Positions 1 to 59,558 of a stretch of DNA of 64,000 nt are shown in pieces; position 1 is the stretch's first letter; each line of letters begins with the position of its first letter. The stretch spans positions 19,130 through 83,129 of the forward strand of contig JAWKRR010000022.1 in NCBI GenBank assembly GCA_041389525.1, read 5' to 3'. The position numbers and the translations under genes are program-made. Under the pieces are notes generated by a model. That model was not told the origin of the DNA. It saw only the letters and a program-made list of their open reading frames with translations, and made no database searches. The stretch is from Myxococcota bacterium (GTDB taxonomy: Bacteria > Myxococcota_A > UBA9042 > PHBI01 > JACKFB01).

Positions 1-60
1 TGGCTCTCGCGCAGCCGATCTCGGGCGGGCCTGCTTCGCCGCGCCAGAGGCCGACCGCCA

Positions 61-1777: not shown

Positions 1778-3159
1778 GCGCGGGCGGCGGGCACCATCGT
1801 CCTCCCGCGCCGCAAGGCTGCGCCAGAGCAAGCAGAAAGTCTGCCCCCGGCCCCCGACGTTCCGACCGTTTCGAGCCTGAAATTGCTGGCTCAAAATATG
1901 AGAAGCAACCGTATTCCGACCCCTAGTCTCCGCCTTCAGGGTCGTTGCGGAATGGTTGACGTCCGCGGTCGGCCCCTCGATCACACGGTTTAGAGGCGCG
2001 GCCTGTCGCGCGCGTCTGCCCATGATGATAACGAGCCAGCGGACCACTTCGCCCGCGCGCGGGGCGCCTCGCAGGCGCGGGATCCCTGATTGCCACCCAC
2101 GCTGTTCTCCACCTCCCTAACCTTGCTCGCTCGAACTCCTGGGGAGGAGGCACGAGCAGGTATCGTCGCGGACGGCCCAGCGATTCCAGATGATTGCGCG
2201 TGAATCGGACCATCTCGGTCGGATCTGGACGCCAACGGCTCCGCTCAACCATCAGCGCCAAGGCGAGCTTCCTTGAGTGCGTGAGCGACTTGTAGGAAAA
2301 TGCTCTCGTCCACTGAGTCCAGTATCACGCTCTCTCCTCAGGAAGCCGGCCCCAGCAACCCTTCGTCTCCGGACTCAGCCACAAGTAACCTTGTTCCGGA
2401 TCCGGTCGGGAGACGCCTCAGGTACTCGTCGCTGATTGTGCGCATGGCCTTGAACTCAGGAGCCGGAAAGAAGCGAGTAGCCGCTCCCCGCACAGCGGAA
2501 AGAAGGCATCCGCCTCCTTACCCACACCGACGTAGTCCGAAACCAACAAGGCGATTGCTGGATGCTTGGCCCGATCCAGCTGACCGCATCTGGTACCAGC
2601 CCCTGGCGGATTGACGATTTCCTCGCCTCCGGCTTCGACAGCAGTTCTTCGACAATCGCGGAAGCCGCCATGGCGTCGTCAATGTCAGAAATCGCGTGCT
2701 GCCGCACATTCTCAGGAGTTGCTCCTGAACGGTCGAGCGTACTCCACCGAGGAGGAATTCACGACGCGCTGCAGAGCGCCGGCTACGAATTCACCAGCCA
2801 TTGCCCCGAGAACCGAAGAGCCGGTGTTCGCTCGAACCAGCGCACCCGCTGCTGCTTGGCGCCTGCCGTTTGGCGCTCTCGACCGAGACTTCCTTCACTT
2901 TAATCGCGCCCCGACGTGTGCCAGCGGGAAGACTTGGCGGGGGGCGGATGAGAGGTTCGCGCTTGCCCCGCGCCGAAGGCGCTCGGACCGCCCCCGTTGA
3001 CAGCCTTTGCGGTGTTCGATGGCGCTTGAACTCGTCTCGCGGTGTTCATGGTGGGGAGCCTCGCTCGCACGCTACGGCAAGTCAATGGCGTGTCGTTCGG
3101 CCTGTCCGGGACTTGAAGTTCCGGGGCCGCTGGGCGGTCGATCGAACGCCAGCCCGAGA

Positions 3160-3873
3160 TCAGCTGTGGGTCCCGATCTGCGGTGCTGCTGCCGGCGCGG
3201 TTAGCTCGGGGTTGGCTTGCCAGACTATGGCCAGGTAGGTGAGGAGGGTGGCGTCGGTTAGTTCGATTATCTCCTCTATTAGGGTGGGGGCGCAGTGTTG
3301 GGTGAGGGCGGTTTGGGATTCTCCCCATTGGAAGATGGCTATGGTTAGGGCGGCTGATAGGGCTGGGAGGGCTAGGAGGGCTAGGTGGCGGAGTGTGGGG
3401 GCTTTGGATTGGTAGATTGCTAGGAGGGGGAGCCAGGTGGCTACTAGGAAGAGGAGGATTAGAGGGGGGAGCTCGCTTAGGAGGGCTGCGGCGGTGTTGA
3501 TGGGGCCGTAGTCGGTGGTTTGTAGCAGCGTGTGGATTGAGCGCTGGTCGGGGTCGAAGAAGAGGGGGCGGCCGGAGAGGACTTGGCCCCAGTTGGCCTC
3601 CTCTAGGAAGATGAGGGCGATGACTGCTAGGGCTGCCATGAGCGCGCGGCGGGGGCGGGCTTGGAGGGTTGGGAGGCGGAATGCCAGGAGGGTGAATGCC
3701 ATGGCATATTGCGCCAGGGTGGCCCACTCTGAGAATGACTGCTCGCCGCGTCGCATGCTGTAGAACCAGCAGCCGGCGGGTTTGGCGTAGACGAAGGCTG
3801 TCAGGACCACGGGGAGGGCGGCCCAGAGGAGGGCGGCGGCGGTCCAGGCTTGCTGGGATTTTGGGCGTGGCAT
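3160..3873 (-). CDS. polytopic membrane protein, unknown function (lower-GC, rare-codon gene)
   Basis: 237-aa ORF with 6 or more hydrophobic helices. The coding strand is CT-rich with frequent CTA/TTA Leu codons, atypical for the surrounding ~70% GC DNA. The overlapping ORF 2900..3727(-) is a Pro-rich low-complexity artefact in another frame. Confidence 0.5.
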   Translation of the reverse strand: MPRPKSQQAWTAAALLWAALPVVLTAFVYAKPAGCWFYSMRRGEQSFSEWATLAQYAMAFTLLAFRLPTLQARPRRALMAALAVIALIFLEEANWGQVLSGRPLFFDPDQRSIHTLLQTTDYGPINTAAALLSELPPLILLFLVATWLPLLAIYQSKAPTLRHLALLALPALSAALTIAIFQWGESQTALTQHCAPTLIEEIIELTDATLLTYLAIVWQANPELTAPAAAPQIGTHS

Positions 3874-12859: not shown

Positions 12860-14776
12860 ATGCCCGCTGACCAACTCGCGCTCTTCGGCTCCGGTGCGCC
12901 GGCGAAGAAGCGCCAGCCCGAGATCGCGTCGGACAGCGCGACAGCCGCGCGGGCGGTGCTGCGCGAGGTCTTCGGCTACGGGGACTTTCGCGCCGGGCAG
13001 AGCGAGGCGGTCGCGGCCTTCGACGCCGGCCGGGACGCGGTGGTCGTGCTGCCGACGGGCGGCGGGAAGTCCATGTGCTACCAGGTGCCGGCGATCCTGC
13101 GGCGAAAGCGCGGCGGCGGCCCGACCTTGGTGGTGAGCCCGCTCATCGCGCTGATGAACGATCAGGTGGCGGCGTTATCTCGGGCTGGCGTCCCTGCCGT
13201 CGCCATGCACTCGGGGCAGCCCAGCGAGCAGTGGCGCGAGCTTCGGGACGAGGCGGCGCGGGCGACGCTGATCTACGCGAGCCCGGAGCGGTTGCAGAAC
13301 GAGGGGTTTCGACGCTGGCTGGGCCATATCGGCGTGGCGGCGGCGGCGGTGGACGAGGCGCACTGCATCAGCGCGTGGGGGCACGATTTCCGGCCGGATT
13401 ATCGCTCGCTGGACGTGCTCAAGCGCGAGCTGAAGGTGCCGGTCATCGCGCTGACGGCGACGGCGACGCCGCAGGTGATGGAGGAGATTGGCCAGACGCT
13501 GGGGCTGGTCGAGCCGGCGGTGGTGGTGGGCGATTTCGCGAGGCCGAACCTGAGTTTTTCGGTGGAGTTGATCCAGAGCGACGGGGCGCGGACCGAGCGC
13601 ATCCTGGAGTTGATGCGCGAGTCGGGGCTGAAGCCGGGGCGGCCCGGGCGGGCCATCATCTACGCGGCGACGCGCAAGCGGGTGCAGGCGCTGCACGACG
13701 CGCTGCGGAAGGCGGGGCTGGCGAGCGGCTACTACCACGCGGGGCGCACGGACGGGGCGCGGCAGAGCGCGGCGGCGGCGTATGAATCGGGCAAGAAGCC
13801 GATCCTGGTGGCGACGACGGCGTTCGGGATGGGGGTGGACCACCCGGACGTGCGCTACGTGGTGCACGCGAACGCGGCGGGCAGCGTCGCCGGCTACTAC
13901 CAGGAGGCGGGGCGCGCGGGGCGGGACGGTGAGCCGGCGCGGTGTGTGCTGCTCTACTCGAGCGCTGACGCGGTCACGCACGCGCGGCTGCGGGGGAAGG
14001 TGCCGACCGCGGGGGCTCTCGCCGGCTGGAAGGCGATGCAGGACTACATCTACGGGGCCGGGTGCAGGCAGCAGGCGCTGGTGCGGTACTTCACGGACCG
14101 GGACGGGGCGCGGTGCGGGGGGTGCGACGCGTGCGTGACGCCGGAGGTGGTGCGGGAGGCGCTGGACGGGGCGCGGGCGGAGCACTCGGCGCGGATGGAG
14201 ACCAAGGCGGCGAAGCGGGCGCAGGACGCCGAATACGTAGTCACCGACTCGCAGAATGACGTGGTGCTGGCCTTCGTGGGGGCGCTGAAGAAGCCGCTCG
14301 GAAAGCAGCTCATCGCCAAGGGGCTGCGGGGGAGTCGGGCGAAGGACGTGAAGCGGAAGGGGCTGGCGAGCAATCCGTCCTTTGGGGCGCTGGCGGACCT
14401 GCCGGAGAGCGTGGTGCTGGACACCATCGAGGGATTGCTGAACGACGGGCTGCTGGGGCGCAAGGGGCGCAAGTACCCGACGGTGTGGCTGCCGGACAAG
14501 CCGGTGCGGCGGGCGGCGCCGGCGGGGGCTGCGCCTAAGCGCGAGAAGAAGGGGCTACAGGCGGCGCTCGAGAAGTACCGCTCGCGCGAGGCGCGCAAAC
14601 GGGGCTGGAAGCCGTACCAGGTCTTCGACAACAAGACGCTGAGCCGGATCTGTCGGGCGCAGCCGCAGGACGACGCGGACCTGCTGGCCATCGACGGCAT
14701 CGGGCCCAAGCGGGTCGAGGCGTTCGGGCCGACCATCCTCGAGTTGGTGGCCGAGCACGCGAAGCCGCGGGGGTGA
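12860..14776 (+). CDS. recQ: ATP-dependent DNA helicase RecQ (helicase core, RQC, C-terminal HRDC)
   Basis: 'LREVFGYGDFRAGQSEAVAAF', 'VLPTGGGKSMCYQVPA', 'DEAHCISAWGHDFRPDY', 'ALTATAT', 'IIYAATRKRV', 'VATTAFGMGVDHPDVRYV'. C-terminal HRDC 'YRSREARKRGWKPYQVFDNKTLSRI'. The true start may be downstream (GTG 12956), because a REP-like motif sits at 12911-12925. Confidence 0.85.
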   Translation: MPADQLALFGSGAPAKKRQPEIASDSATAARAVLREVFGYGDFRAGQSEAVAAFDAGRDAVVVLPTGGGKSMCYQVPAILRRKRGGGPTLVVSPLIALMNDQVAALSRAGVPAVAMHSGQPSEQWRELRDEAARATLIYASPERLQNEGFRRWLGHIGVAAAAVDEAHCISAWGHDFRPDYRSLDVLKRELKVPVIALTATATPQVMEEIGQTLGLVEPAVVVGDFARPNLSFSVELIQSDGARTERILELMRESGLKPGRPGRAIIYAATRKRVQALHDALRKAGLASGYYHAGRTDGARQSAAAAYESGKKPILVATTAFGMGVDHPDVRYVVHANAAGSVAGYYQEAGRAGRDGEPARCVLLYSSADAVTHARLRGKVPTAGALAGWKAMQDYIYGAGCRQQALVRYFTDRDGARCGGCDACVTPEVVREALDGARAEHSARMETKAAKRAQDAEYVVTDSQNDVVLAFVGALKKPLGKQLIAKGLRGSRAKDVKRKGLASNPSFGALADLPESVVLDTIEGLLNDGLLGRKGRKYPTVWLPDKPVRRAAPAGAAPKREKKGLQAALEKYRSREARKRGWKPYQVFDNKTLSRICRAQPQDDADLLAIDGIGPKRVEAFGPTILELVAEHAKPRG

Positions 14777-25127: not shown

Positions 25128-25142
25128 GATCTCGGGCTGGCG
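25128..25142 (-). repeat. REP-like motif copy (GATCTCGGGCTGGCG, inverted orientation) between the ATP-grasp and alpha-E genes
   Basis: Exact reverse complement of CGCCAGCCCGAGATC. Other copies: 3147-3161(+), 12911-12925(+), 39093-39106(+, coding), 41088-41101(-, variant), 45348-45361(-), 45972-45986(+), 59542-59555(+), 57417-57430(-, variant, coding), 20190-20200 (variant). Confidence 0.6.
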
Positions 25143-27951: not shown

Positions 27952-28317
27952 ATGCTGCAGAAAGTCGCCTTCACCCTGGTCCCGATCAAGGACGCCGCCC
28001 GCGCCCGGGCCTTCTACGAGGACACCCTCGGCCTGACCCGCGGCAGCCACCACGAAGACGGCACGTGGACCGAGTACGACCTGCCCGGAGGCGGCTGTCT
28101 GGCGCTCTTCCGCTCCGACGACCTGCAGCCGAGCAACACCGCCGGCAGCACCGTCGCCTTCGAGGTCGACGACCTCGACGCGCTCAACGCGACACTCAAA
28201 TCCCAAGGCGTCACCTACGCCCAAGACATGATCCACTCCCCGGTGTGCCGGATGTCGGTCATCGTCGACTCCGAGGGCAACGGCCTGCTCCTCCACGAGC
28301 TCAAGGCGAAGCCCTAG
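27952..28317 (+). CDS. VOC (glyoxalase/bleomycin-resistance fold) family protein
   Basis: 121 aa. 'VAFTLVPIKDAARARAFYEDTLGL' and 'TVAFEVDDLDALNATLKSQGV' form beta-alpha-beta-beta-beta VOC modules. It is the in-frame tail of ORF 26914..28317, whose upstream part is Arg/Ala noise. Confidence 0.65.
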   Translation: MLQKVAFTLVPIKDAARARAFYEDTLGLTRGSHHEDGTWTEYDLPGGGCLALFRSDDLQPSNTAGSTVAFEVDDLDALNATLKSQGVTYAQDMIHSPVCRMSVIVDSEGNGLLLHELKAKP

Positions 28318-28383
28318 CCCGCCCTGCGCGCCGGCCGCGCGGCGGCGCCTCGGCGCGCGGCGGCGCAGGGGCGGCCGGGCGGG

Positions 28384-29223
28384 TTACTTGCCGTCGAGGG
28401 CGGCGAGGAGTCGCTTGGCGTAGGCGTCGCGGTCGACCGCAAAATTGTCTTTGCGGTCGGGGTTTTCGACGACGTAGATGGCCTTGTCGACCAGCTTCTT
28501 CTGCTTGGCCTGCAGGGCCTTCATGTCCTTGAGGGAGAAGAGCTGGTCCTTGCTGCCCACGATGAGGGTGATGCCGGTGAGCTGCTTGCCGGGGGCGCCG
28601 TCGAGGGCCGTCTGGGGCTCGTAACGCTTCTCGTAGCCGGCGAAGGGGACCTCCATGGGCGTGTCCCAGCTCGAGAAGCGCCGCTCGAGATCCTCCATGG
28701 AGAGAAATGGCGTGTCGGCGATGATGCGCGTCAGCTCGGGGCGGCCGTAGCCTATGCCGAGGGCGAGGCCGGCGCCGATTCCCCAGCCGTAGACCGCGAA
28801 GGACTTGCCGTGGGTCTTGCGGCAGTAGTCGAGCATCGTCGCGTAGTCGTCCTGGAAGTGCGGGTAGATGAACATGTTGTTGTCGATCTCGAACTCGCTG
28901 CTCTCGCCGAAGCCGCGGTAGTCGAAGGCCACCACGTTGAACTGCCCGGTGAGGGCGTCGACGCGGCGCAGGTAGTCGCCCATGTTGCCCTCGCCGTTGT
29001 GGCTGATGAGCACGAGCTTCGTGGTCTTCGTCTTGGCCGGGAAGGTCCAGACGTTGAGCGTGGCGGTGCCGTCGTTCGTGGGGACCTTGGCCTCGGTGAA
29101 GGCCATGTTGAACTTGTCCGGGCGCTGCTTGTAGGTGCGGCTTGGGTTCAGGGCCATCGCGTCGGCGGCGACGAGGGTGGCGAGGGCCGCGAGGGCGGCG
29201 GTCAGGGCGGTTTTGCGCAGCAT
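28384..29223 (-). CDS. secreted alpha/beta-hydrolase-fold-like protein (nucleophile motif atypical)
   Basis: Signal peptide 'MLRKTALTAALAALATLVAADAMA'. 'LVLISHNGEGNMGDY', 'VVAFDYRGFGES' and 'FAVYGWGIGAGLALG' resemble the oxyanion/nucleophile-elbow region of prolyl-oligopeptidase/DLH-like hydrolases, but Gly sits where the catalytic Ser is expected. AT-poorer, Lys-rich composition. Confidence 0.45.
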   Translation of the reverse strand: MLRKTALTAALAALATLVAADAMALNPSRTYKQRPDKFNMAFTEAKVPTNDGTATLNVWTFPAKTKTTKLVLISHNGEGNMGDYLRRVDALTGQFNVVAFDYRGFGESSEFEIDNNMFIYPHFQDDYATMLDYCRKTHGKSFAVYGWGIGAGLALGIGYGRPELTRIIADTPFLSMEDLERRFSSWDTPMEVPFAGYEKRYEPQTALDGAPGKQLTGITLIVGSKDQLFSLKDMKALQAKQKKLVDKAIYVVENPDRKDNFAVDRDAYAKRLLAALDGK

Positions 29224-29510
29224 GGGCGGGGCTCCTGGAGGGTAGGGCGCCGCCCCAGCCCCGAGGCCGCGGCGAGGATGACGCCGAGTGTGTATAATGG
29301 GGGGAGTTTACTGGCTGGGCGGTCGGTGTCGAGCACACGGGACGCGCAGCGCCGGCGGCGTAGATTCAGCAATCGCGCGTTTGGTGCGTTGTTTCGGTTG
29401 CCGGGACTGGGTTGTGCCCGTAGATGGATGGAGTTCTGGGGATCGCAGCCCAGCTCGACGCCGCCCGGTCATCCGCTCCCGACCTGTGTTTAGACGATGA
29501 GGACCTCTCG

Positions 29511-30116
29511 ATGGCGCGACCCAAATCATTCGATGTCGACGAGGTGCTGGAGCAGGCCGCGACGCTGTTCTGGAACCAGGGCTACGAGGCGACCTCGATG
29601 CGCGACCTCGAGAACGAGCTCGGCGTGGGGCGGCAGAGCCTCTACGACACGTTCGGCGACAAGCGCTCGCTCTTTCTCAAGGCGCTGGAGCGCTACGCGA
29701 AGGATGGCGAGAGCTTCTGGGCTGGCATGGAGGGCCCCGACGCCGGCTTGGCGGAGCTGCGGACCTGGTTTGACGCGCTGGTGGACCACGCGGGCCGCGA
29801 CGGGAGGCGGGCGGGCTGCTTTGTCGTCAACACGGTGGCGGAGCTTGGCGACCAAGACGAGGGCGCGAACGCCATCTGCCGCAGGAGCCGCGAGACCCTG
29901 GCGAAGCGATTCCGGAACGTGCTGGAGAACGCCGTGCGCCGCGACGAGCTGCCCAGCCCGGCCGACCTGGGCGCGGCCGCCGATTTCCTGGTCGCCCAGA
30001 CCTACGGCGTGCTGCTGATGGGCAAGAACGGCGCCGCCAGAGACCGCCTCCGCGCGGCCACCGCCCAGGCGCTGCGAGCCGTAGGGGTCGGGTCCGGACT
30101 TAAGACTTGCTCTTGA
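29511..30116 (+). CDS. TetR-family transcriptional regulator
   Basis: N-terminal HTH 'VLEQAATLFWNQGYEATSMRDLENELGVGRQSLYDTFGDKRSLF' is the TetR_N signature. ATG 29511. Confidence 0.8.
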   Translation: MARPKSFDVDEVLEQAATLFWNQGYEATSMRDLENELGVGRQSLYDTFGDKRSLFLKALERYAKDGESFWAGMEGPDAGLAELRTWFDALVDHAGRDGRRAGCFVVNTVAELGDQDEGANAICRRSRETLAKRFRNVLENAVRRDELPSPADLGAAADFLVAQTYGVLLMGKNGAARDRLRAATAQALRAVGVGSGLKTCS

Positions 30117-30149
30117 CGAGGGCGGGGTTGGGGGCGAGGCTCCGCGGCC

Positions 30150-31142
30150 ATGGCACGTACAGCACGCATTCAGGCTCCTGGGCTTTGGCATCACGTGATG
30201 AACCGCGGGGTTGGGCGCGGGGATGTGTTCGTCGACGACGACGACCGGCACGGGTTCTTCGAGCTGCTTGAGGACGTCGCCGAGCGGTGGGGGCTGCGGA
30301 CGCACGCGTTCTGCCTGATGGGCAACCACTTCCACCTGCTCGTCGAGGACACGGAGGGAAACCTCGCGCGGGGGATGCGGCACGTGCTCGGCGTCTACAC
30401 GCAGCGCTTCAACCGGCGACACGGGCGCGACGGGTCGCTCTTTCGCGGGCGGTTTCGGTCGCGGCTGGTGCAGCACGAGGAGTACCTCGCGGAGCTTGTG
30501 CGCTACATCCATATGAACCCGGTGCAGGCGGGGCTCGCCGAGCACGCGGGCGACTACCCGTGGTCCAGCCACGGGCACTACATGCGCGGCACGGGCCCCG
30601 CGTGGCTCGCGACGGGGGAGGTCATGGGCCGGTTCGGTGGCGACCCCGAGCGGCTCGACACCTTCGTGCACGCGCGGGTGCCCGACGAGGTCAAGGCGGC
30701 GCTGGACCCGGCGGTCAACCCGAAGCTGCTGGGCGACGACGCGTTCGAGGCGGCTTGGGCCGACCGGCTGCGCGGGCGGCCAGGCTCGGGCCCGGCGGCG
30801 GCTGACGCGCCGGGCCGCCTTCGTAGCGCCGCGCGCGAGGTGATCGCCGCGGTCGCCGCGCACTTCCACGTCAAGCCGGCCGCCATCAAGCGGGCGGTCC
30901 GCGGGCAGCCCAACCCCGCCCGCCACGTCGCGCTGCTGGTCTGCTTGGACTACACGCAGATGTCGAGTCGCGACGTCGCCCGGGCCCTGGCGATGCACCC
31001 CACCAGCGTCGCCTCGCTGGCGCATCGCTACCGCAAGACGATGGCTCAGGACCCCGAGTTCCGGGCGGACGTGCAGGCCGTGCTCGCCGCGCTGCGCGCC
31101 GCCCCCCAGCCTGCGTCGACTCGCGGCGCAGCCAAGAGCTGA
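30150..31142 (+). mobile_element. IS200/IS605-like Y1 HUH transposase of the RAYT type (COG1943) with a C-terminal DnaA-C-like HTH domain
   Basis: 'HHVMNRGVGRGDVF...LRTHAFCLMGNHFHLLVE' carries the HuH motif. 'ELVRYIHMNPVQAGL' and 'YPWSSHGHY' (catalytic Tyr region) are typical of RAYT/IS200-like TnpA. The C-terminal 'HVALLVCLDYTQMSSRDVARALAMHPTSVASLAHR' resembles DnaA domain IV. REP-like copies are scattered in the window (see repeats). Confidence 0.7.
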
Positions 31143-31452
31143 GCGGGCGCGCGGCGAACAAGCCCGCCCGGGTCCGAGGCGAATCTAGAGACGGCGACAG
31201 GCCGATCGGAGATCCTCGGGCCCGAACTCGCCCGCGGTGACGGGTCTTTTTCGCGCCGACCGACCGTCGGGGTTCGCCGTTCGGCAGCGGCGCGCTGGCC
31301 CCGGGGTTGCTCGCCCATAGGGCCGGACCTAGTGCCGCGAGGGTTTCGTCTCGGCGAGCCAGTTACATCGACGGCGCGAATGCGCGTGGCGCACCGGCCG
31401 CGGGTCCGCATTCTAAATGCCTCACACACAATGACTTGGAAGAGGCTCCACG

Positions 31453-34400
31453 ATGCGTAAGCAGACGTTCCGGATTGGCCTGCTCGTGGCCGTTGCTTTA
31501 TTGGCGGGTTGTCCAGACGGCACGACCTCGTCGAACGACGCCACGGCCGATGCGCTCCCCGAGGTCGACGGCTCGACATTCCTCGACAGTGCGGGCGGCG
31601 ACGCGACCGTGGACACCGCGCCCGACGCCACGCCGGACACCGTCCCTGACACAACGGACACGGGCCCCGACGCCACGCCGGACGCGGTCCCCGACGCCAC
31701 GCCGGACGCGGTCCCCGACGCCACGCCGGACGCGGCCCCCGACGCCACGCCGGACGCGGCCCCCGACGCCACGCCGGACGCGGTCCCCGACATCCGCGCC
31801 GGACGCGGTCCCCGACGCCACGCCGGACGCGGCCCCCGACGCCACGCCGGACGCGGCCCCCGACACCACGCCGGACGCGGCCCCCGACGCCACGCCGGAC
31901 GCGGTCCCCGACACCGCGCCGGACGCGGTCCCCGACACCGCGCCGGACACGGCCCCCGACACCACGCCGGACACAGCCCCTGACACCACGCCGGACACGG
32001 TCCCCGACACCACGCCGGACGCTGGCACCGCCTGCGAGTGCGGCCCGACTGCACCGGAAGGTCTGCGGGACGACGCCTGCGGCGGCACCTGCGGTGAGTG
32101 CGCCTCCGGCCAGCTGTGCAGCGCGGACGGCACCGCCTGCGAGTGCGTGCCCGACTGCACCGGAAAGGTCTGCGGCGACGACGCCTGCGGCGGCACCTGC
32201 GGTGAGTGCGCCTCCGGCCAAGCGTGCAGCGCGGACGGCACCGCCTGCGAGTGCGTGCCCGACTGCACCGGAAAGGTCTGCGGCGACGACGCCTGCGGCG
32301 GCACCTGCGGTGAGTGCGCCTCCGGCCAAGCGTGCAGCGCGGACGGCACCGCCTGCGAGTGCGCGCCCGACTGCACCGGAAAGATCTGCGGCGACGACGC
32401 CTGCGGCGGCACCTGCGGTGAGTGCGCCTCCGGCCAAGCGTGCAGCGCGGACGGCACCGCCTGCGAGTGCGTGCCCGACTGCAACGGCGCGGTGTGCGGT
32501 GACGACGGCTGTGGCGGCAGCTGCAGCGCGGACACCCCGACCATCGCGTGCGCCGACGTCTTCACCGGCGTGACCAACGAAGGCGGCGCGACCGCCCTGA
32601 ACAACGCCACCTGGGGCGGGTGCGCGGTGAACGAAGAGTACGACGGTCCCGAGATCGGCTGGGTGTTCACCCCGACCCAGGACTCCGTCGCCACGTTTGA
32701 GCAGACCAACGACCCGGCGTTCGGAGGCATCGGGGGCGTCGGCGACGACGTAGACCTCTTCGTGATCGAGGCGGACGACGCCAACATGTGCTCGCCCAGC
32801 CCGACCGCGTGCCTCAACGCCACCGCATTCCACACCGCCGTGTTCAACGCGGTCGCCGGCAAGACCTACTACCTCATCATGGACGGTTGGACCTCGGGTG
32901 GCGGCTCCGGCATCGTCAACCCCATCGACGTCAGCCTGACCTGCTGCACGCCCGACTGCGCGGGCAAGCTGTGCGGCGACGACGGCTGCGGCGGCACCTG
33001 CGGCGAGTGCGCCGATGGGGACGCGTGCAACGAAGGGGCCTGCTGCACGCCCGACTGCGCCGGCAAGGTGTGCGGCGACGACGGCTGCGGCGGCACCTGC
33101 GGCGAATGCGCCGCCGGGGACACGTGCACCGTGGGGACCTGCTGCACGCCCGACTGCACGGGCAAACTGTGCGGCGGCGACGGCTGTGGCGGCAGCTGCG
33201 GCGGGGACGCCCCGACCATCGCGTGCGCTGACGTCTTCACCGGCCTGACCAACGACGGGGGTCCTGCCACCCTGAACACAGCCACCTGGAACGGGTGCGC
33301 GAGCTCGGAGGCGTACGACGGTCCCGAGATCGGCTGGGTGTTCACACCGACCCAGGACTCCGTCGCCACGTTCGAGCAGACCAACGACCCGGCGTTCGGA
33401 GGCATCGGGGGCATAGGCGACGACGTAGACCTCTTCGTGGTCGAGGCAGACGACGCCAACATGTGCTCGCCGAGCCCGGACACGTGCCTCGCCGCCACCC
33501 GATTCTACGATGCCGAGTTCAAAGCGGTCGCCGGGAAGAGCTACTACCTCATCCTGGACGGCTGGACCTCCGGTGGCGGCACCGGCATCGTCAACCCCAT
33601 CGACGTCAGCCTGACCTGCTGCTTCCCGGCCTGCGACAACCTCAGCTGCGACATCACCGACGGGTGCGGCGGGACCTGCGGTTGCGCCGCGGGAGACACG
33701 TGCAACGCCGGCTCCTGCTGCACGCCCGATTGCGCGGGCAAGCTGTGCGGCGACGACGGCTGCGGCGGCAGCTGCGGTGCCTGCAACGCCGGGGACACGT
33801 GCAACCAAGGGGCCTGCTGCACGCCCGATTGCACGGGCAAGCTGTGCGGCGACGACGGCTGCGGCGGTGGTTGCGGCGAGGACGTCCCGACCATCGCATG
33901 CGCTGACGTCTTCACCGGCCTGACCAATGACGGAGGCTTGACCACCCTGAACAACGCCACGTGGAACGGGTGCGCGGGCGCGGAGGACTACGAGGGTCCC
34001 GAGATCGGCTGGGTGTTCACCCCGACCGAGGACGTCGCCGCCAGCTTCGTGCAGACCAACGACCCGCTGCTCACCGGGGCCGCAGCCGTCGCCGACGACT
34101 TGGACCTCTTCGTGGTCGAGGCCGACGCGGTGGATATGTGCTTGCCGAGCCCAGCCGCGTGCCTCACCGCCACCACGTTGCACACCGCCGACTTCAACGC
34201 GTTCGCCGGCAAGAGCTACTACCTCATCCTTGACGGCTGGACCGGGGGTGGCGGCACCGGAATCGTCAATCCCATCGACGTCAGCCTGACCTGCTGTGTC
34301 CGCTCCTGCGACAAAGTCAGCTGCGGCGGCGCGGACGGGTGCGGAGGGACCTGCGGTTGCGCCGACGGGGACACGTGCAACGCAGGTTCCTGCTGCACGC

Positions 34401-34915: not shown

Positions 34916-35065
34916 TCGGCGTGGCGCGGCGGCGGCGGGCTGGTCCGTCGCCGCCTGCCCACAGCGCGGCGGCTGCTGCCCGATGTGGTCGCCGCCCCGC
35001 CACGGCTGGCTGGCGGTCGGCCGCGAGCGCCGGTATCGTCGTGCCATCGAAACACGGAGGCGGCG

Positions 35066-36229: not shown

Positions 36230-39200
36230 GGCGCAGGACCCACACGGGGCCGGCCCTCGGCGCGACCCTGGCGCTGCTCTCGCTGCTCGGCCCGGCCCAC
36301 GCTCACGGCGGCCTCTTCGCCCCTCCGAGCGACCCCGATCTCGGGCTGGTGGACGTCGTCCCGCTGGCTGGCTCCCTGGTGACCGTCGACGCGAAAGGCT
36401 GGGCCTGGCTCGCCGATGTGTCCGACGAATACTGGCTCTCCGCGGTCCCCATGGGCGCGCCCTTCGCCGCGGCCACGTCGATTCGCTTCCCCAGCGTCCA
36501 GCTTGGCGGCCCGCCCTCCGCCAGCATCACCCACGGCCGCCGCGCCTGCCCGGCCCGAGACGGCGACGGCGTGTGGGTGCTGGACATCAAAAACGGCGAC
36601 ACCGCCTCACTGTTTCGCCTCCGCGCGGCCGACTACTCACCCCCCACGGGCTTTCCCGTGCAGGCGGTCGTCGAGATCCCGATGCTGCCACCGCTTCGCG
36701 AGGCCCTGGGGCTGAGCCTTAGCTGGGAGGCGACCCTGCAGACCTACTTCAAGACGAACGTCGCCCACCCGCGCTTCGGCCTGGTCGAGCGGCCCGACGG
36801 CGCGGTCTGCGCGATGTTCGCCGGCGCCTCGTTCTGCCTCGTCCCGGGCGCCACGGCCGCCGAGGGGACGCTTGAGCTGCTGACCCGGCCGGAGGACTTC
36901 GCGACAGGCCTGCCCGTGGACCCACAGGTCGGCGGCGGCGGCTACGGCATCGTGCGCGACATGCTGTGGACCCGCGCCGAGGGGCGCCACATCCTGCTCA
37001 TCGAGCGAAAGCGCGACCCCATCCCCTTCAACACCTCGTGGAATCCGACCGGAGCGAGCGAGCACACCGCTCATCTGGTGGTCGAGCGGCACCCCGACGG
37101 CACCTTCGACGTGCTCGACGGCCCCTACCACGTCAAATACGACGACAATCGCTCGACCCTGAGCAGCCACCCGCTCACCGACGCCGTTCAGCTAATGGAG
37201 TGGCCAGGGCGGCAGGCCGTGGTCGCGTGGCCCGTCCGCGGGCAAGCGTGGAACTGGGTCGACGCGAACGCTGGCGACGCGCAGGGAGGCGACCTGGCCA
37301 ACCCGAACTTCACCCCGGTCGGCTGGGTCGGCGACGGGATGCGCGTCGTGTCGCTGGGCGCTGGAGGCGGCGCGGGGGACCTGCCCCTGGGCGACGCCCT
37401 AGACCGGCGGCTCACCTGCGAGCGCGCGTTCTTCGGCCACTGCGCCACCGCCGCGACGACGCGACTCGTCGCCGAGCCAGGGACCGGGACCCCACTCCTC
37501 GCCCTGGAGACCGAGCGCGAGGGCGCGGGCCTGCCCATCTACCGCGTGGTGCTCGACGACGCGAAGCTGGACCTCGACGGCGACCACCTGACCGCCGCCG
37601 AGGAGGCCGCGGCGGGCACCAGCGACCTGTGGGCCGACAGCGACGGCGGCGGCAACAGCGACCGCGAAGAGCTGCTCGCGGGCACCGACCCGAACGACCC
37701 CCAAGACGATCCGGTGGGGGCGCTGCGGGACGGCGGCGAGGTCATCTACTCGACCAGCGCGCTGATTCGTCGTCGCCTCGGCCGCCTCTGGAGCGGCGGA
37801 GCCCCGCCCCCGCTGGGCATCAGCTACGCGCCGGCGGGCCCGGTCTGTGTCGCCACCGGCTGCTACAACGCCCGCGGCGAGCAGGTGCTGCGTTGGGACG
37901 GCCAGGACCCAGCGACGGCCTGGGTCCCGACCAAATCCGTCGACGGGCGCTGGGTGGTCATCTGGACGGCGGACGACGTGGTGCGCATCCGCGTGGCCGA
38001 CGGCCTGCGCGAGACCATCGTCGCGCGCGACGCCCTGGCGAGCCTGTTCGAGCTCGTGGACACGGGACCGGCGCTCTGGGGCGTGCGCGTCATCCCCGTC
38101 GACGCAGATGAAACCTGGTTCATCTCGCAGTGGCCCCGGGCCATGGCGGTGGTCGTCGACTCAAGCGGCGCGCGGGTGGCCTTCGACCCGATGAAAGCGC
38201 GCTGCGACGCGGGATTGGGGCCCTGCGACCCGGGCCCGCTGCCCGAGGCCGCCAACGCCCACAAGAGCTGCGGCGGCGGCCTGCCCGGCGCGGTGTGCGG
38301 CGACCCGCTGCCGGCCCACGACCTGGACGACCGCGACCTGCACCTCGTGGGCTGGGACGAGGCCCTGGGCCGCTTGATCGTGGTCGTTCATGGCGTCTGG
38401 GACACCTACGAGCTGGCCCTTCACCACACGGACGCCCCCATGCTGCGCCGCAGCAACGTCGACCTCCGCGTCGAGCCCGTCGACCCGCGCGACCCGTGGG
38501 CGCTCTTACGCCCGACGATTCATACCGAGGCCATGTGGCACGGCACCGGCTACGGCGACGTCCTGACCGACGTGCGCACGCGCGGCCCCTTCGGCGCGCC
38601 GATCGCCGGCCGCTTGGAGGCCTTCGCCATGTACGGCCCCGGGGTCTTCGGCGGCTGGGGCGACACGCTGCTCTACTGGCTCTACACCGGCAGCGGCCAG
38701 GACGGCCTCTTCGAGCTCGTCCGCATGCCGGGCGGCCTCGAACCGGGCGACGTGCTGGTCCTGGGGACACGCAGCGACCCCACCTGGGCCGGCTCGGTCG
38801 CCGGCGACGACCCGGAGCCACAGCTCTGGCGGAGCAGCGCGCGCGGAGGCTTGGCCCAAGTGTGGGCGGGCCCCCAGGGCCTGCTCGACGCGCCCACTGA
38901 CATGGACGTCACCGCCGACGGCGACCTCTGCATCGTCGACGGCGGCACGGTCTTCCGCTTCGCCGCGCTCTCTTTTGACCAGCGTTTGCCTAGCGTTTTC
39001 GTCGACGGCTGGACCGGACACGACGCGGCGCGCTGCCGCTTCGCCCCCGACGGCACGCTGTGGCTCCAGACCGCCGGGGGCGTGCTGATGAGCCAGCCCG
39101 AGATCACCTCCGACTTCGCCCCCGCCGAGGGCGGCCCCCCCTTCGAGGACCGCGCGCTGGTCCGCCCCGACGGGCTCGTCGTCAGCCTCAGCCCACCGCC

Positions 39201-40911: not shown

Positions 40912-41337
40912 AGCGGCTCCCGGTGGCGCCGCGTGACACGCGGACCTTACGAAGGTAGCACCGCGTCGACTTCGGGCATAGGGCGAGGCGCGCGCCGAGC
41001 TCGGGATGCACGGGCGCTTGCGGAGCGCGGCGGGCGGCCATGAGCAACACAGTGTGGAGAAATGGGGAGGACGGCCCGATCTCGGGCTGAGAAGTGCGGT
41101 ATTTCTCTACACACCGTTTGCGATGCGATACGGCTTGGCGCCCTGGAGCCGGGCGGCTCGCGGGGATGGCACGCTTGTTGCGTTTCGGCTACCAGAGCGG
41201 AGGCGCGGTGGGCGTCACTCGGCGTGGCCGGTGCTTTCGCAGACGCCTCTCGGCGCCGCTGACGTTTGCGCGCTGCAATGCACAACGATCAGGACGGGCG
41301 CCCGGGGCCAGGCCACGAGAATTGGAGGGAGCGCGAT

Positions 41338-42349: not shown

Positions 42350-42458
42350 ACCAGTCGCGGCGCGCGCCCCGGGCATCACGCTGCGGGGCTCGCGCCGCGC
42401 TTACCGTGCCTCCATCGCCCTGATATGCTGCGGGCATTCAGCACATTGGAGGCACATC

Positions 42459-44142: not shown

Positions 44143-45339
44143 ATGCACCCTGTGCAACTCCCCTCAGCACCCACGCGCCACCTGTGGATTTCCACCCTCG
44201 CCCTCAGCTGCGTCGTCGCGACCAGCGCGCTCGCCTGCGGGGACGGGGGCGACTCGGGGCCCGCGCCGAAGTCGGTCTACGGCCCGACCACCCGCGAGAC
44301 GGTCAACGAGTACAAGCGAAACCGCGACGACGGCACGCTGCTGACCATCACCTCAGAGGTCGTCGGCGAGATCGCGCTGCCCACCGGCACCTTCCAGCGC
44401 ACGCGGCTCGGCGAGTTCACGCCCACCGCGCCAAGCGGCATCGAGGCGTGGGTCTCGTTTCCCACCCCCGAGACCCTGACCATCGCGGGCGGCGAGGCGT
44501 GGTCGCAGCAGCTGCTCCCGAGCCCCAACCCCGCCGATTCCTCAGCGCGCGTCGAGCTCGCCACCCCCATCACCGTGGACCTCACGCCCACCCTCGGCGA
44601 GGCTCAGCCGCTCGACGGCGAGGTCAGCGTGGACATCCTCGGCACCCGGGTCGACCTGAGCGTCACCGGCAGCTTCACCCTGGTCGGCGACGACGTGACG
44701 GTGATGACCGGCGCCGGAGCGCTGCACGGGTGCCGCCACTACACGGGCAGCGGCAAGGCCGAGGGCAACGAGCTGCTGACCCTGCTGGGCGCCGACTCCG
44801 CCAGCGGCGAGCTGTGGCAACACCCCAACCTGGGCTTCGTGCGCGCCGTCGCCTCCGTGCCGGGCAAACCCGACTACGTCTTCGACTTCACCGGCACCAG
44901 CGAGTACGGCCGCGCGACCTCGGGCACCAACCGCATCCAGGGCATGCGGGTGCTCCGCACGCTCGACGAGTTCGAGCTGAACACCTACGACGTCCACGGC
45001 GCGCTGGACGCCGACAAGGACACCCACGCCAAGATGATGATCGAGGCCCGCTACCTGGACGAAGACCTCGCGCGCTCGTCGAACCGGCCGCCCATCGCGA
45101 CCGAGATCGGCACGCTGTTCGGCACCTTCCCGCACTTCCTCGTCGAGTCGCCCCTGAGCTTCTTTCACCCCGAGGAGAACGGCCAGGGCTTCACCTACTG
45201 GATCGCCTACGTCGACCAAGCGGCGAAGAACGAGCCGTCCAACGGCATCACGTACCACGTCACCGCCTGGGTCCCCGACTACGGGACCAACCCGGTGCGG
45301 GTGACCAGCCGCATCGTCTATCAGCTCTACACGCCCTGA
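44143..45339 (+). CDS. lipoprotein, unknown function
   Basis: Lipobox 'SALACG'. 398-aa protein-like ORF. Followed immediately by an inverted REP-like motif at 45348-45361. Confidence 0.55.
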   Translation: MHPVQLPSAPTRHLWISTLALSCVVATSALACGDGGDSGPAPKSVYGPTTRETVNEYKRNRDDGTLLTITSEVVGEIALPTGTFQRTRLGEFTPTAPSGIEAWVSFPTPETLTIAGGEAWSQQLLPSPNPADSSARVELATPITVDLTPTLGEAQPLDGEVSVDILGTRVDLSVTGSFTLVGDDVTVMTGAGALHGCRHYTGSGKAEGNELLTLLGADSASGELWQHPNLGFVRAVASVPGKPDYVFDFTGTSEYGRATSGTNRIQGMRVLRTLDEFELNTYDVHGALDADKDTHAKMMIEARYLDEDLARSSNRPPIATEIGTLFGTFPHFLVESPLSFFHPEENGQGFTYWIAYVDQAAKNEPSNGITYHVTAWVPDYGTNPVRVTSRIVYQLYTP

Positions 45340-45428
45340 TCTCGGGCTGGCTTGTCCGGGTGGCCCTCGGCGACGGGGGCCCTCGGACCGGCCGCGGTCG
45401 GCTGCTCGCGCCGGCCCGCGCGCGCGGG

Positions 45429-45971: not shown

Positions 45972-45986
45972 CGCCAGCCCGAGATC
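45972..45986 (+). repeat. REP-like motif copy (CGCCAGCCCGAGATC) in the ArsR/rhodanese intergenic region
   Basis: Exact 15-mer shared with 3147-3161 and 12911-12925. An inverted copy, 45348-45361, lies 600 bp away. Confidence 0.6.
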
Positions 45987-52231: not shown

Positions 52232-52239
52232 CCGCGCAT

Positions 52240-52315: not shown

Positions 52316-53596
52316 ATGCGCGCCGCCGCCGAGGTCGCTGTCGCGGTCGACCGCCTGTACCGCGCCGAATCGGGCCGCATCCTGGCCTCCCTCATCGCCT
52401 CCATCGGCGACTTCCAGCTCGCCCAAGACGTGCTGCAAGAGGCGCTGACCCTCGCCCTGACCCGCTGGGCCGCCGACGGCCTCCCCGCCAACCCGGCCGC
52501 CTGGGTCCACACCGCGGCCCGAAACCGCGCCATCGACCAGCTACGCCGCGGCGCCCGCTTCGCCGAGAAGTCCGCCGCCGTGGCCACCCTCGAGCGGCTG
52601 CGCGACGAGGAACGCCGGGAGGCCGAGGCCGTGGCCCGCGACGAGGTCCAGACCTTCCCCGATGAGCGCCTGCGCCTCATCTTCACCTGCTGCCACCCCG
52701 CCCTCAGCGGCCCGGCCCAGGTGGCGCTGACCCTGCGCGCCCTGTGCGGCCTGCAGACCGAGGAGATCGCCCGCGCCTTCCTGGTCCCCGCGACCACCAT
52801 GGCCCAGCGCCTGGTGCGCGCCAAGGCCAAGATCCGCCAAGCCGGCATCCCCTACCGCGTGCCCGACGCCGACCAGCTCGCCGAGCGCCTCGACGGCGTC
52901 CTGGGCGTCATCTACCTGGTCTTCAACGAGGGCTACCAAGCCTCCGCCGGCGCGCGATTGGTGAGGCGCGACCTGTGTGAAGAGGCCATTCGCCTGGGCC
53001 GGATGCTCCACCACTTGATGGAATCAACGCCCGAGATCGGCGGCTTGCTGGCCCTGATGCTGCTGCACGACGCGCGGCGCGAGGGGCGGGCCGACGCGCG
53101 CGGGCGCCTGATTTTGCTGGAGCAGCAGGACCGCGCGACCTGGGACCACGCGCAGATCGCCGAGGGGAAGGCCCTGGTCGAGGCGGCGCTGCGGCGGGGG
53201 CGGGTCGGCCCTTACCAGATTCAGGCGGCCATCGCGGCGCTCCACGCGGGGGCGGCGCGGGCGGAGGACACGGACTGGCCACAGATCGCCGCGCTCTACG
53301 GGTTGCTGGGGCGGGTGCAGCCCTCGCCGGTCATCGAGCTGAACCGGGCGGCGGCGGTGGCGATGGCGGAGGGGCCCGATCGCGGGCTGGCTTTACTCGA
53401 TGCGCTGCAGCGCGGGGGCGAGCTGGCGGACTACCCGTGGCTGCCGGCGGCGCAGGCGGATTTGCTGCGGCGCGCGGGTCGAACCGACGAGGCGCTGGCT
53501 GCCTATCGGCGGGCGCTGGCGCTGACGCAGAGCGAGCCGGAGCGGGAGTATTATCGCGAACGCATATGCGAGCTGGGGGGCGGGGCGTCGGGCTGA
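52316..53596 (+). CDS. ECF-type RNA polymerase sigma factor with C-terminal TPR-like extension (ECF42-like)
   Basis: Sigma2 'LYRAESGRILASLIASIGDFQLAQDVLQEALTLALTRW'. Sigma4 'RLIFTCCHPALSGPAQVALTLRALCGLQTEEIARAFLVPATTMAQRLVRAKAKIR'. About 230-aa C-terminal extension ending in TPR-like 'RTDEALAAYRRALALTQSEPEREYY'. The YCII/DGPF gene immediately upstream is the conserved ECF42 neighbour. Confidence 0.75.
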   Translation: MRAAAEVAVAVDRLYRAESGRILASLIASIGDFQLAQDVLQEALTLALTRWAADGLPANPAAWVHTAARNRAIDQLRRGARFAEKSAAVATLERLRDEERREAEAVARDEVQTFPDERLRLIFTCCHPALSGPAQVALTLRALCGLQTEEIARAFLVPATTMAQRLVRAKAKIRQAGIPYRVPDADQLAERLDGVLGVIYLVFNEGYQASAGARLVRRDLCEEAIRLGRMLHHLMESTPEIGGLLALMLLHDARREGRADARGRLILLEQQDRATWDHAQIAEGKALVEAALRRGRVGPYQIQAAIAALHAGAARAEDTDWPQIAALYGLLGRVQPSPVIELNRAAAVAMAEGPDRGLALLDALQRGGELADYPWLPAAQADLLRRAGRTDEALAAYRRALALTQSEPEREYYRERICELGGGASG

Positions 53597-56696: not shown

Positions 56697-56735
56697 GAGC
56701 AGGTCGAGAGCAAGTCTCAAGTCTTGACACGACCC

Positions 56736-57833
56736 CTAACGGATTGTCGCGCTGAGGACGTCGAACTCGGCGTAGACGAACTCACCCTCGGGCGCGTGCC
56801 AGCGGGCTTCGGCGTGCTTGACGCGCAGGGGCGGGCCGTCGTCGAAGTAGGCGGTGACGGGCGTCGAGAAGCGGGTGAGCGTGAAGTCGCCGGGGGCGCT
56901 GGTCGCGCGGGAGCGGTCGTCGGAGACGAAGTTCACGACGCGCCCGGCGGCGTCGAAGTGCAGCGTGGCCGAGACCTGCTGCGCGCCCTGGCTGAGGCGG
57001 GCCCGGGCGGTCACGTCGTCGATGGGCTCCCAGGTGATGGCCGGATCCAGCAGCGTCCGCGGCGCCAGCAACGTCATGTCGTTGAGCAGCGTCACCGACT
57101 CCGAGCGGTCCATCACCTCACCGCTCGCGTCCTGGACGGGGATCACGCCCAGCACGCGCACCTGCATGGTCGCGTGGCCGCCGACGAGGCGATGGTAGGC
57201 CTCCACAGGCAGGCCGTGGGTGCTCGCGCGCATCAGGAAGAAGCGGGCCGCCGGCGCGGTCGCGCTCTGCTGCTCGGCCTCAAAGGGCATCCAGGCCTCG
57301 TCCGGGCCGCTGCGGATGCGCCCGCGTAGCCTCAACGCGTAGCTGCTCGCGCGCGGGGAGCCAGCGACGACCCCGCTGAGGCTCAGGTAGCGGCGGACCG
57401 GCGCGGGGAGCGCGTCGATCTCGGGCTGTGTCACCTGCCCCGGGTCTGCGGGGGTCTCGACGAGCGCGGCCGTGTCTCGGGCGAAGCGGGCCTCGAAGCT
57501 CTGCGGGCCGTGGACCAGGTAGCCCTGCAGGACGCCGAGCAGGAGCAGCACGTTCACCACGGTGCCGAAGCGCGCGTCCTGCCACGACGCGACGATCGCG
57601 ATCTGCGAGACCACCACAGCGGCCGCGCCCAGCATCCACCAGCCCCGCGGCCACAAGAAGAGGGCGCCGGCGGCGGCGAGGCAGAGCAGCGCCGCCGCCA
57701 GCCAGACCGCTCCCATGGGGCGCGAGATGGGGAGGTTGAGCTGCGGTAGCTCCGCCCAGCCGAAGGCCTTAGCCACCCCGAGAAGGTGGATCAGACCATG
57801 CAGCGCGACGATTGCAGCGAACACCCAGCGCAT
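56736..57833 (-). CDS. hypothetical membrane protein (N-terminal 4-TM region plus soluble C-terminal domain)
   Basis: Start MRWVF (ATG 57833). TM helices 'WVFAAIVALHGLIHLLGV', 'AVWLAAALLCLAAAGALFLW', 'WWMLGAAAVVVSQIAIVASW', 'VVNVLLLLGVLQGYLV'. No family assigned. Confidence 0.5.
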   Translation of the reverse strand: MRWVFAAIVALHGLIHLLGVAKAFGWAELPQLNLPISRPMGAVWLAAALLCLAAAGALFLWPRGWWMLGAAAVVVSQIAIVASWQDARFGTVVNVLLLLGVLQGYLVHGPQSFEARFARDTAALVETPADPGQVTQPEIDALPAPVRRYLSLSGVVAGSPRASSYALRLRGRIRSGPDEAWMPFEAEQQSATAPAARFFLMRASTHGLPVEAYHRLVGGHATMQVRVLGVIPVQDASGEVMDRSESVTLLNDMTLLAPRTLLDPAITWEPIDDVTARARLSQGAQQVSATLHFDAAGRVVNFVSDDRSRATSAPGDFTLTRFSTPVTAYFDDGPPLRVKHAEARWHAPEGEFVYAEFDVLSATIR

Positions 57834-59486: not shown

Positions 59487-59558
59487 CGGTCACCGCGATG
59501 ACCCGCGCGCTCGGCCGCCACCGACCGCCCGCGCGAGGTAAGCCAGCCCGAGATCCCC

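Follow-up and report, generated by a model that had tools for sequence, protein, structure and literature searches.

A TIRYT gene with a GGGGTC-type repeat and an unconnected, clade-specific 14-mer in an uncultured Myxococcota genome

Results

The TIRYT gene and its class

The DNA analysed here, hereafter called the window, is a stretch of 64 kb from contig JAWKRR010000022.1 of an uncultured member of the Myxococcota. It contains a gene for an IS200-like Y1 HUH endonuclease, a repeat of the GGGGTC type that precedes this gene (element B), and a short word, GATCTCGGGCTGGC, which is dispersed over the window. The open reading frame (ORF) at 30150-31142 is an ordinary member of the already described TIRYT class, subclass 2.1.2 of the RAYT relatives. 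The word is unconnected to the TIRYT gene, and it is not a repetitive extragenic palindromic (REP) sequence. The class of the gene and its association with GGGGTC-type repeats are both established by the present analysis.

The Y1 HUH domain of the protein covers residues ~5-140, while a helix-turn-helix (HTH) domain resembling domain IV of DnaA covers residues ~230-312. In the NCBI annotation, where the 100% identical protein is MEZ4266866.1, the start is placed at M17, giving a length of 314 aa. The match to Pfam Y1_Tnp (33.7 bits) passes the cut-off of 23, and the match to Bac_DnaA_C (24.7 bits, E = 2.4e-5) is under the Pfam cut-off of 31.5. A profile of the family (32 members) matches DnaA domain IV structures with E = 1.3e-11 and gives a weak match to E. 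coli TnpA_REP (PDB 4ER8, E = 0.22). In the 32-sequence family alignment, both histidines of the HFH motif (H60-F61-H62) are invariant, and the catalytic tyrosine, Y119 in RYIHxNP, is nearly invariant. More than 2000 homologs have the Y1 and DnaA_C architecture in common.

This architecture corresponds to subclass 2.1.2 of the TnpA_REP-like proteins (Quentin et al. 2018, PMC6006769), and the same authors treat this subclass as equivalent to the “TIRYT” class (Di Nocera et al. 2013, PMC3733652). The published TIRYT genes are flanked by terminal inverted repeats (TIRs) that share the consensus GGGGWSAS, not by REPs (PMC3733652, PMC6006769). The window gene resembles the published “TIRtron” loci in that it encodes a Y1 HUH domain with a catalytic tyrosine, is present in a single copy and is not accompanied by TnpB. 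The protein is also longer than the classical RAYTs because of the C-terminal HTH domain, which is Bac_DnaA_C-like here and also HTH_23- or HTH_28-like in the class. Furthermore, a repeat of the GGGG[AT][CG]A[CG] type precedes the gene at a short, fixed distance, and a further copy is found elsewhere in the window. The locus differs from the TIRtron layout in that it has no downstream inverted partner. In some members of the class the TIRs form a dispersed family, and two copies of the repeat were seen in the 64 kb of the window. The classical RAYTs share with the window gene a related Y1 HUH domain, the single-copy state and short repeats that are also found elsewhere. However, unlike E. coli TnpA_REP and the genes of the Pseudomonas REPINs, the window gene is not flanked by a GTAG-tagged palindrome of 20-40 nt, and its product has the extra DnaA-like HTH domain.

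The neighbouring genes encode a TetR regulator, an alpha/beta hydrolase and a lipoprotein, and TnpB is not among them. The original prediction was that of a RAYT-like Y1 HUH gene fused to a DnaA-C-like HTH, without a complete insertion sequence (IS), and in kind it is correct. A complete IS200/IS605 element was rejected, given the single copy in the window, no TnpB beside the gene and no significant hairpins in the flanks. It was also stated that no terminal inverted repeats are evident, which overlooked element B at 30081-30117.

Element B and the repeats of TIRYT homologs

Element B is a 36-nt repeat located directly upstream of the TIRYT gene, and its end is 33 nt from the ATG. It includes a TTGAC hexamer as well as GGGGTCGG at positions 30084-30091, which is placed 66 nt before the ATG and fits the consensus GGGGWSAS at seven of the eight positions, a difference from the repeat of the published TIRYT genes. 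A repeat finder paired 30082-30117 with a second copy in the 39-nt spacer between two convergent genes, a GST-like gene (55746-56696, plus strand) and a DUF6544 gene (56736-58136, minus strand). The two copies are inverted in the manner of TIRs, are 26.6 kb apart and bracket the TIRYT gene together with ~20 other genes. We rejected the possibility that a GTAG preceding element B is a REP tag, because the second copy has TTAG instead and the homologs lack it. Within element B, positions 30084-30116 also form the 3' end of the TetR-family gene that lies upstream, encoding its 11 C-terminal residues (VGVGSGLKTCS) and its stop codon. Matches to Pfam TetR_C stop short of this tail, which suggests that element B has replaced the original 3' end of the TetR gene.

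The same upstream position is occupied by such an element in homologs that are 61% (L001-L004) and 76% (L005-L007) identical to the window protein. These homologs carry GGGGTCGG or GGGGTCAG at -48 to -69, the latter being the repeat of the 76% homologs, and L001-L004 also have an inverted copy behind the stop codon. In these loci the module GGGGTCGNGTCCGGAC is found five times around the gene, with copy numbers that vary among the strains L001-L003, and it delimits the ~0.9-kb units described below. A metagenome scan with the TIRYT protein, which yielded distant relatives only (30-55% identity), was used to follow the GGGGTC box and not the 14-mer. In the metagenomic loci, which range from 38 to 70% GC, the box GGGGTCAG(T/G)YC is mostly placed ~50-70 nt before the start codon, with tandem partial copies often placed before it and a TTGACA-like hexamer after it. 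The upstream box is present in 37 of the 52 testable family loci, and 24 of the 52 also have the inverted downstream partner, mostly less than ~40 nt past the stop codon. From the recurrence and placement of these repeats, the cognate DNA of the TIRYT protein is predicted to be the GGGGTC-type element B and not the 14-mer. With its one flanking repeat, the TIRYT locus in the window looks domesticated or decaying.

By analogy with RAYT/REP and IS200/IS605 systems, the TIRYT protein would recognise element B and nick and rejoin single-stranded DNA at this site, which could account for copying and rearrangement of the element around the gene in relatives. A further, probable function of the upstream box is that of promoter or operator of the TIRYT gene, given its fixed distance to the start codon and the TTGAC(A) hexamer beside it. 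In many family members (L156, L157, L163, L164, L176, L177, L181 and L184), the full box is immediately preceded by two to three incomplete boxes in tandem, such as AAAGGGGTCAT AAAGGGGTCAGTCCC. Such iteron-like tandem boxes hint at cooperative binding of a protein.

Other repeats were seen downstream of the 61% homolog, where L001:11000-11900, L002:9100-14000 and L003:8600-13500 contain one to three copies, depending on the strain, of units of ~0.9 kb. One end of the unit is GGGGTCGGGTCCGGACATAGGATTCGTGAGAATTAACCCC and the other end is a 179-nt repeat that is also found after the TIRYT gene. The units encode small ORFs (46 and ~150 aa) without a Pfam match. Adjoining them in L001 is a 106-aa ORF with a DnaA_C domain only (11192-11512), which is probably a TIRYT remnant.

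A dispersed 14-mer in the window

In an unbiased census, no other 12-mer of the window is as frequent as CAGCCCGAGATC, which has ten exact copies, five on each strand, and outnumbers simple GC-rich words. The exact 15-mer CGCCAGCCCGAGATC is found four times (3147, 12911, 25128 and 45972) and never in 100 shuffles, and matches to the 15-mer with up to two mismatches number 14, as compared to 0.6 in the shuffles. The exact 14-mer GCCAGCCCGAGATC is present at the 15-mer sites and at 39092, 45338 and 59542, while the 12-mer core is also exact at 36337, 41078 and 57417. We credit the word, with its core GATCTCGGGCTG, with 13 copies in the window (Table 1).

A codon-frequency model predicts ~0.02 copies of the 12-mer in the genes of the window, against 4 exact and 3 near copies observed. 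The sense copies inside genes are always read in the frame CAG-CCC-GAG-ATC, and the antisense copies force very rare codons (relative usage TTA 0.00, TCT 0.03, GCT 0.05). Scans of genome collections and viral contigs, which served as background, gave scattered single matches to the 14-mer in unrelated high-GC genomes, among the matches listed. In 2.0 Mb of unrelated loci, made up of stretches that had each been chosen for one match to the 14-mer, the 12-mer occurred a second time in just two stretches among the matches listed, which corresponds to ~1 extra copy per Mb of unrelated high-GC DNA among these matches.

The statistical excess is real, as originally predicted, and is seen alike in the shuffles, the codon model and the 12-mer census. 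It could in principle be an artefact of composition and codon usage in a genome with 71% GC, the frame CAG-CCC-GAG-ATC being made only of preferred codons, or of assembly and adaptors, as the word is loosely similar to a section of the Nextera adaptor, to which it is not an exact match. However, the codon-aware expectation falls far short of the 4-7 copies in genes, dinucleotide shuffles give none, half of the copies are non-coding, and the other reading frames force rare codons. Also, independent assemblies of three related lineages hold the word, partly at orthologous sites, and it is rare in unrelated high-GC DNA among the matches listed. An artefact is therefore hardly credible.

Several details of the original prediction had to be revised. 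The copies placed at 45348 and 41088 are 10 nt off and are truly located at 45338 and 41078. The supposed variant at 20190 and the supposed degenerate copy at 31206-31219 have five mismatches each and are not credible; the latter is part of a neighbouring local inverted repeat. The copies at 17, 13176, 36337 and 53378 had been overlooked. The statement that most copies are intergenic is half correct, since non-coding copies are 6 of 13, but they are nevertheless enriched, as non-coding DNA makes up only 11.7% of the window (p = 0.002). The other 7 of 13 are inside ORFs, in frame, with four in one orientation and three in the other.

No palindrome and no conserved flanks were seen in or around the 14-mer in the flank alignment and the position matrix of copies, and a hidden longer element was rejected on the same grounds. 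The flanks only tend to be rich in T or pyrimidines immediately 3' of the word. Folding of the motif sites revealed no shared DNA or RNA hairpin (z-scores from -1.0 to +0.3, save one motif-free hairpin), and a hairpin or terminator common to the sites was rejected, there being no common structure. Scans of the window for Rfam families and for tRNA and tmRNA genes gave no match. Among sub-words of the 14-mer, neither GATC, CTCGGG nor others were enriched, and GATC was mildly depleted (200 observed, 291 expected). In the literature, the word itself was found in unrelated eukaryotic primers only.

Table 1. Positions in the window of the TIRYT gene, the copies of element B, the copies of the 14-mer and a nearby hairpin.
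Feature	Position	Strand	Description
14-mer, 1 mismatch	17..30	-	inside ORF at the left edge of the window; rare codons CGA, TCT
14-mer, exact	3148..3161	+	non-coding; overlaps TGA stop of minus-strand ORF 3160-3873
14-mer, exact	12912..12925	+	inside RecQ, codons 18-22 (R-Q-P-E-I)
14-mer, 1 mismatch	13176..13189	-	inside RecQ helicase domain; forces rare codons TTA, TCT, GCT
14-mer, exact	25128..25141	-	non-coding; 21 nt past CP_ATPgrasp stop, 26 nt before Alpha-E gene start
Element B, GTAGGGGTCGGGTCCGGACTTAAGACTTGCTCTTGAC	30081..30117	+	GGGGWSAS-type repeat; nhmmer E = 1.5e-8
TIRYT-type gene	30150..31142	+	330-aa ORF; Y1 HUH (IS200-like) endonuclease domain and DnaA-domain-IV-like HTH
Weak terminator-like hairpin with T-run	31228..31255	+	downstream of TIRYT gene
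14-mer, 1 mismatch (12-mer core exact)	36337..36350	-	inside 1386-aa ORF (D-L-G-L)
14-mer, exact	39092..39105	+	inside 1386-aa ORF (S-Q-P-E-I)
12-mer core exact, CTCAGCCCGAGATC	41078..41091	-	non-coding; ~37 nt upstream of likely ATG of minus-strand gene 39475-41020
14-mer, exact	45338..45351	-	overlaps TGA stop of gene 44059-45339, between convergent genes
14-mer, exact	45973..45986	+	non-coding; 83 nt upstream of start of ArsR-family gene (45429-45890, minus)
14-mer, 1 mismatch	53378..53391	-	inside gene 52232-53596; rare codons GCT, TTA adjacent
Element B, second copy	56703..56738	-	86% identical, inverted; nhmmer E = 4.5e-6
12-mer core exact, CACAGCCCGAGATC	57417..57430	-	inside DUF6544 gene (T-Q-P-E-I)
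14-mer, exact	59542..59555	+	non-coding; 3 nt past stop of hybrid histidine kinase gene (59559-62492, minus)

The 14-mer lacks the features of REPs

The 14-15-mers were originally taken to be REP-like sequences that go with this RAYT gene. In that case the enzyme would mobilise them as REP/REPIN-like miniature elements that are not autonomous. The co-occurrence of a RAYT-like gene and an over-represented short repeat in one window speaks for this interpretation, as does the REP-like enrichment of the copies in non-coding DNA, often just past genes. Moreover, the copies at 45338 (minus strand) and 45973 (plus strand) are indeed inverted and 635 bp apart. However, they are not hairpin partners of each other, the sites share no hairpin, and their flanks are not conserved. 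Neither do the copies form the imperfect palindrome of 20-40 nt with a GTAG (or CGTC) tag that is typical of REPs and REPINs, nor are they restricted to extragenic DNA, the in-gene copies being in frame and without indels relative to their orthologs.

No copy of the word flanks the RAYT gene, the copy claimed at 31206 being the one with five mismatches. The gene is instead located in a motif-free gap of 11.2 kb, which is among the largest of the window, with the nearest copies 5.0 kb and 5.2 kb away. The TIRYT homologs are surrounded by GGGGTC-type repeats and not by the word, which is absent from the surroundings of seven homolog loci, barring one chance-level match with one mismatch at 8 kb from the gene. 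Because the 14-mer lacks a palindrome, conserved flanks and a hairpin, resides also in genes, arises by substitution (see below), is absent near the homologs and avoids the surroundings of the gene, it does not represent the REPs of this RAYT, and it is a different element, of the GGGGTC type, that is associated with the gene. We consider the mobilisation of the 14-mers by this RAYT very unlikely.

Evolution of the 14-mer sites

We compared the window with L207, with L332, L337 and L338, and with L336, which were counted as three lineages and are ~88% identical to the window at the nucleotide level in RecQ. The proteins of L332, L337 and L338 are ~89% identical to the window in a neighbouring gene, and their separateness from L207 is assumed. 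All three lineages carry the word, with four copies in 49 kb. The density in these close relatives is thus 0.08 per kb, compared to ~0.17 per kb for the window.

The RecQ orthologs can be aligned without gaps at 87.6% nucleotide identity. Compared with the L207 ortholog, the two motif sites in this gene show 9 and 5 substituted positions out of 14, against a mean of 1.5 over the gene body, and there is no indel. The site at 13176 is absent from L207, intermediate in L336 and a copy with one mismatch in the window, forming the series CTCGCGCGGGTCGGC, CTATCTCGGGCCGGT and TTATCTCGGGCTGGC. In the spacer between the Toluene_X and rhomboid genes, the word is exact in L207 and has one mismatch in L336, and the window has a 13-nt gap at this place. 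The 45338 copy is kept in L332, L337 and L338 with one substitution (GAGCTC), and the word is absent from the L332 spacer that is orthologous to the 25128 site. Finally, there are no copies in 61 kb from relatives at 61-77% amino acid identity (p = 3e-5). Because of the RecQ comparisons, the turnover of sites and the absence from the 61-77% relatives, we conclude that the word is specific to a narrow clade, that its copies originate by substitution and disappear through mutation or small deletions, and that it is not inserted in the manner of a transposable element.

Another dispersed word, TTGGGGGTGGA, is present at L333:430-18985 (Logan contig, SRR29092737), from a Myxococcota relative that is more distant and encodes a homolog of the product of gene 44059-45339 with 61% amino acid identity. 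It has four exact copies and two copies with one mismatch in 21 kb, where 0.29 are expected and none of 100 shuffles reached six. The flanks of these copies are not conserved, and about half of them are non-coding. It may be common in this group for a lineage to have a short word of its own.

Candidate functions of the 14-mer

The evidence on excess, reading frames and site turnover points to a word on which selection or drive acts at the DNA level. In the orientation GATCTCGGGCTGGC, five of the six non-coding copies in the window, together with the copies in L207 and L332, are located 0-32 nt past the stop codon of a gene on the same strand, and two overlap the TGA. The exceptions are 41078 and L336:2143, both of which are placed in divergent promoter regions, and the proximity to stop codons is a tendency, not a rule.

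This placement, the enrichment in spacers, the pyrimidine-rich 3' flank and the conservation of the 45338 copy in a relative would suit a cis-acting site under ordinary selection. Such a site could be bound by an abundant protein, for example a nucleoid, segregation or global regulatory protein, or it could serve in mRNA, as GAUCUCGGGCUGGC, as a 3'-end signal for processing, stability or protein binding. However, near-exact conservation over 12-14 nt is unusual for operators, the sites turn over fast among close relatives, and the copies inside genes are found in both orientations (4 vs 3) and force rare codons. The two copies in divergent promoter regions, the lack of a common RNA structure and the lack of an Rfam match also speak against such a site, nor do the flanking genes have related functions. 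On this balance, a cis-acting site is rather unlikely. A regulon was rejected because the genes beside the copies are unrelated in function. Sigma-54 and extracytoplasmic function (ECF) promoters, judged by eye from the consensus spacing, were rejected since the second required element is not conserved in the flanks. A Chi/KOPS-type sequence was rejected on account of the missing strand skew in the window (five per strand).

The word could also be a by-product of biased repair or methylation, if a site-specific methyltransferase or a nicking repair enzyme converts near-cognate sequences to the word. Conversion toward a cognate word has been proposed for HIP1 in cyanobacteria and for the words of very-short-patch (VSP) repair. 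Consistent with such a process, the copies are created by clustered substitutions without indels, intermediates exist, the strands are used equally, and the word includes GATC and CYCGRG, both typical methylation targets. However, a non-palindromic sequence of 12-14 nt far exceeds the known lengths of methylation and VSP targets, the sub-words are not enriched, GATC being even mildly depleted, and no candidate enzyme was identified. A conversion process of this kind is unlikely, and a restriction or methylation effect on the sub-words GATC and CYCGRG was rejected, as neither is enriched.

Genomic surroundings of the TIRYT gene

The segment of the window at ~28000-44000 includes genes for a hydrolase, the TetR regulator, TIRYT, a lipoprotein with Cys-rich repeats, a 1386-aa ORF and an OmpA-like gene. 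It is absent at the syntenic position in close relatives, as seen in a comparison with L332:5900-10000 and L337. Here, the transglutaminase cluster is instead separated from the ortholog of gene 44059-45339 by genes for a histone-deacetylase-family protein and a Na/Pi cotransporter. Because this segment is missing from the syntenic place in close relatives, the TIRYT gene is situated in a variable region.

The lipoprotein-like gene at 31453-34915 has a signal peptide, MRKQTFRIGLLVAVALLAGC, and a change of frame within 24-nt tandem repeats (~31580-32080, PDA/PDT), which reflects either a true frameshift or a repeat tract that was collapsed during assembly. It continues with Cys-rich modules with periods of 99, 108 and 675 nt, for which Pfam gave no match. 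Direct repeats of 137-300 nt (periods of 174, 318 and 486-492 nt; 82-90% identical) are also found at 53526-55745. Since they are placed inside one large ORF, this ORF encodes a repeat-domain protein that is unrelated to the TIRYT gene and to the 14-mer.

Discussion

We consider it rather probable that the window contains two independent features, a TIRYT gene with a cognate repeat of the GGGGTC type, and an unrelated, clade-specific word at the DNA level that is not a REP. Some of our results weigh against this interpretation. On the side of the gene, the score for the NCBIfam model REP_Tyr_transpos (77.4 bits) is only slightly below its cut-off of 80, two nhmmer profiles detected no partner of element B near the 3' end of the gene in the window, the other copy being 25.6 kb off, and element B showed no significant hairpin in a fold test. 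On the side of the word, the source genome is covered by 64 kb and the close relatives by ~49 kb, classical uptake sequences are 5-10 times denser, and the tendency to follow stop codons could signal a function at the 3' end of RNA. Furthermore, we know of no uptake sequence in Myxococcota.

The word might be recognised by a sequence-specific machinery for handling DNA whose bias makes it accumulate, a proposal that we put forward tentatively, although it is the likeliest single mechanism among those considered. The model for such accumulation is provided by the DNA uptake sequences (DUS) of Neisseriaceae, of 10-12 nt, and the uptake signal sequences (USS) of Pasteurellaceae, with a core of 9 nt, where preferential uptake is followed by recombination. 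As in these sequences, the word in the window is short (12-14 nt), non-palindromic and near-exact, is equally frequent on both strands (five each in the window), and exceeds both the codon-usage model and unrelated high-GC DNA by at least two orders of magnitude. It is also placed in genes, in whichever frame tolerates it, as well as enriched in spacers, often just after genes. Its copies arise by point substitution through intermediates, and a clade has it in common while individual sites turn over. Uptake sequences are reported to be biased toward genome-maintenance genes, and two copies in the window are inside RecQ (12860-14776), which as a single gene (n = 1) is an anecdote only.

The differences from DUS and USS are that these sequences occur at ~1 per kb, with hundreds to thousands of copies per genome, in contrast to ~0.17 per kb here, that the word is confined to a narrow clade and absent at amino acid identities of 77% or lower, and that no inverted-pair terminators were seen among its copies. 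HIP1 of cyanobacteria (GCGATCGC) is likewise written by substitution into coding and non-coding DNA, lineage-specific and built around GATC. However, it is an 8-nt palindrome present at ~1 per kb, whereas the word of the window is a non-palindrome of 12-14 nt. By analogy with these systems, GATCTCGGGCTGGC could be a self-recognition word of an uncultured Myxococcota clade, equivalent to an uptake sequence or to another drive that writes by substitution, which is at present a speculative proposal.

The TIRYT gene itself is routine, one more member of its class. The 52 metagenomic loci nevertheless tie the class to a GGGGTCAG-type box at a fixed upstream distance, often with tandem partial copies, and this fixed distance points to a possible combined role of the box as substrate and operator. 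For the word, the implications are potentially wider. Among short, near-exact, non-palindromic words that substitutions have written into genes and spacers, a good understanding exists only of the uptake sequences, which belong to two families of bacteria. If GATCTCGGGCTGGC is a self-recognition word, it would to our knowledge be the first such system outside Neisseriaceae and Pasteurellaceae, and we know of no report of signature words of this kind for Myxococcota. Other Myxococcota that carry words of their own, such as TTGGGGGTGGA in L333, would in that case indicate that signature words are general in the group. The uncultured clade shows orthologous sites in absent, intermediate and complete states, and it would thereby offer a new system for studying whether such words originate through uptake bias, biased repair or selection on binding sites. 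The word may also be of practical use in binning, and as a tracer of gene flow within the clade.

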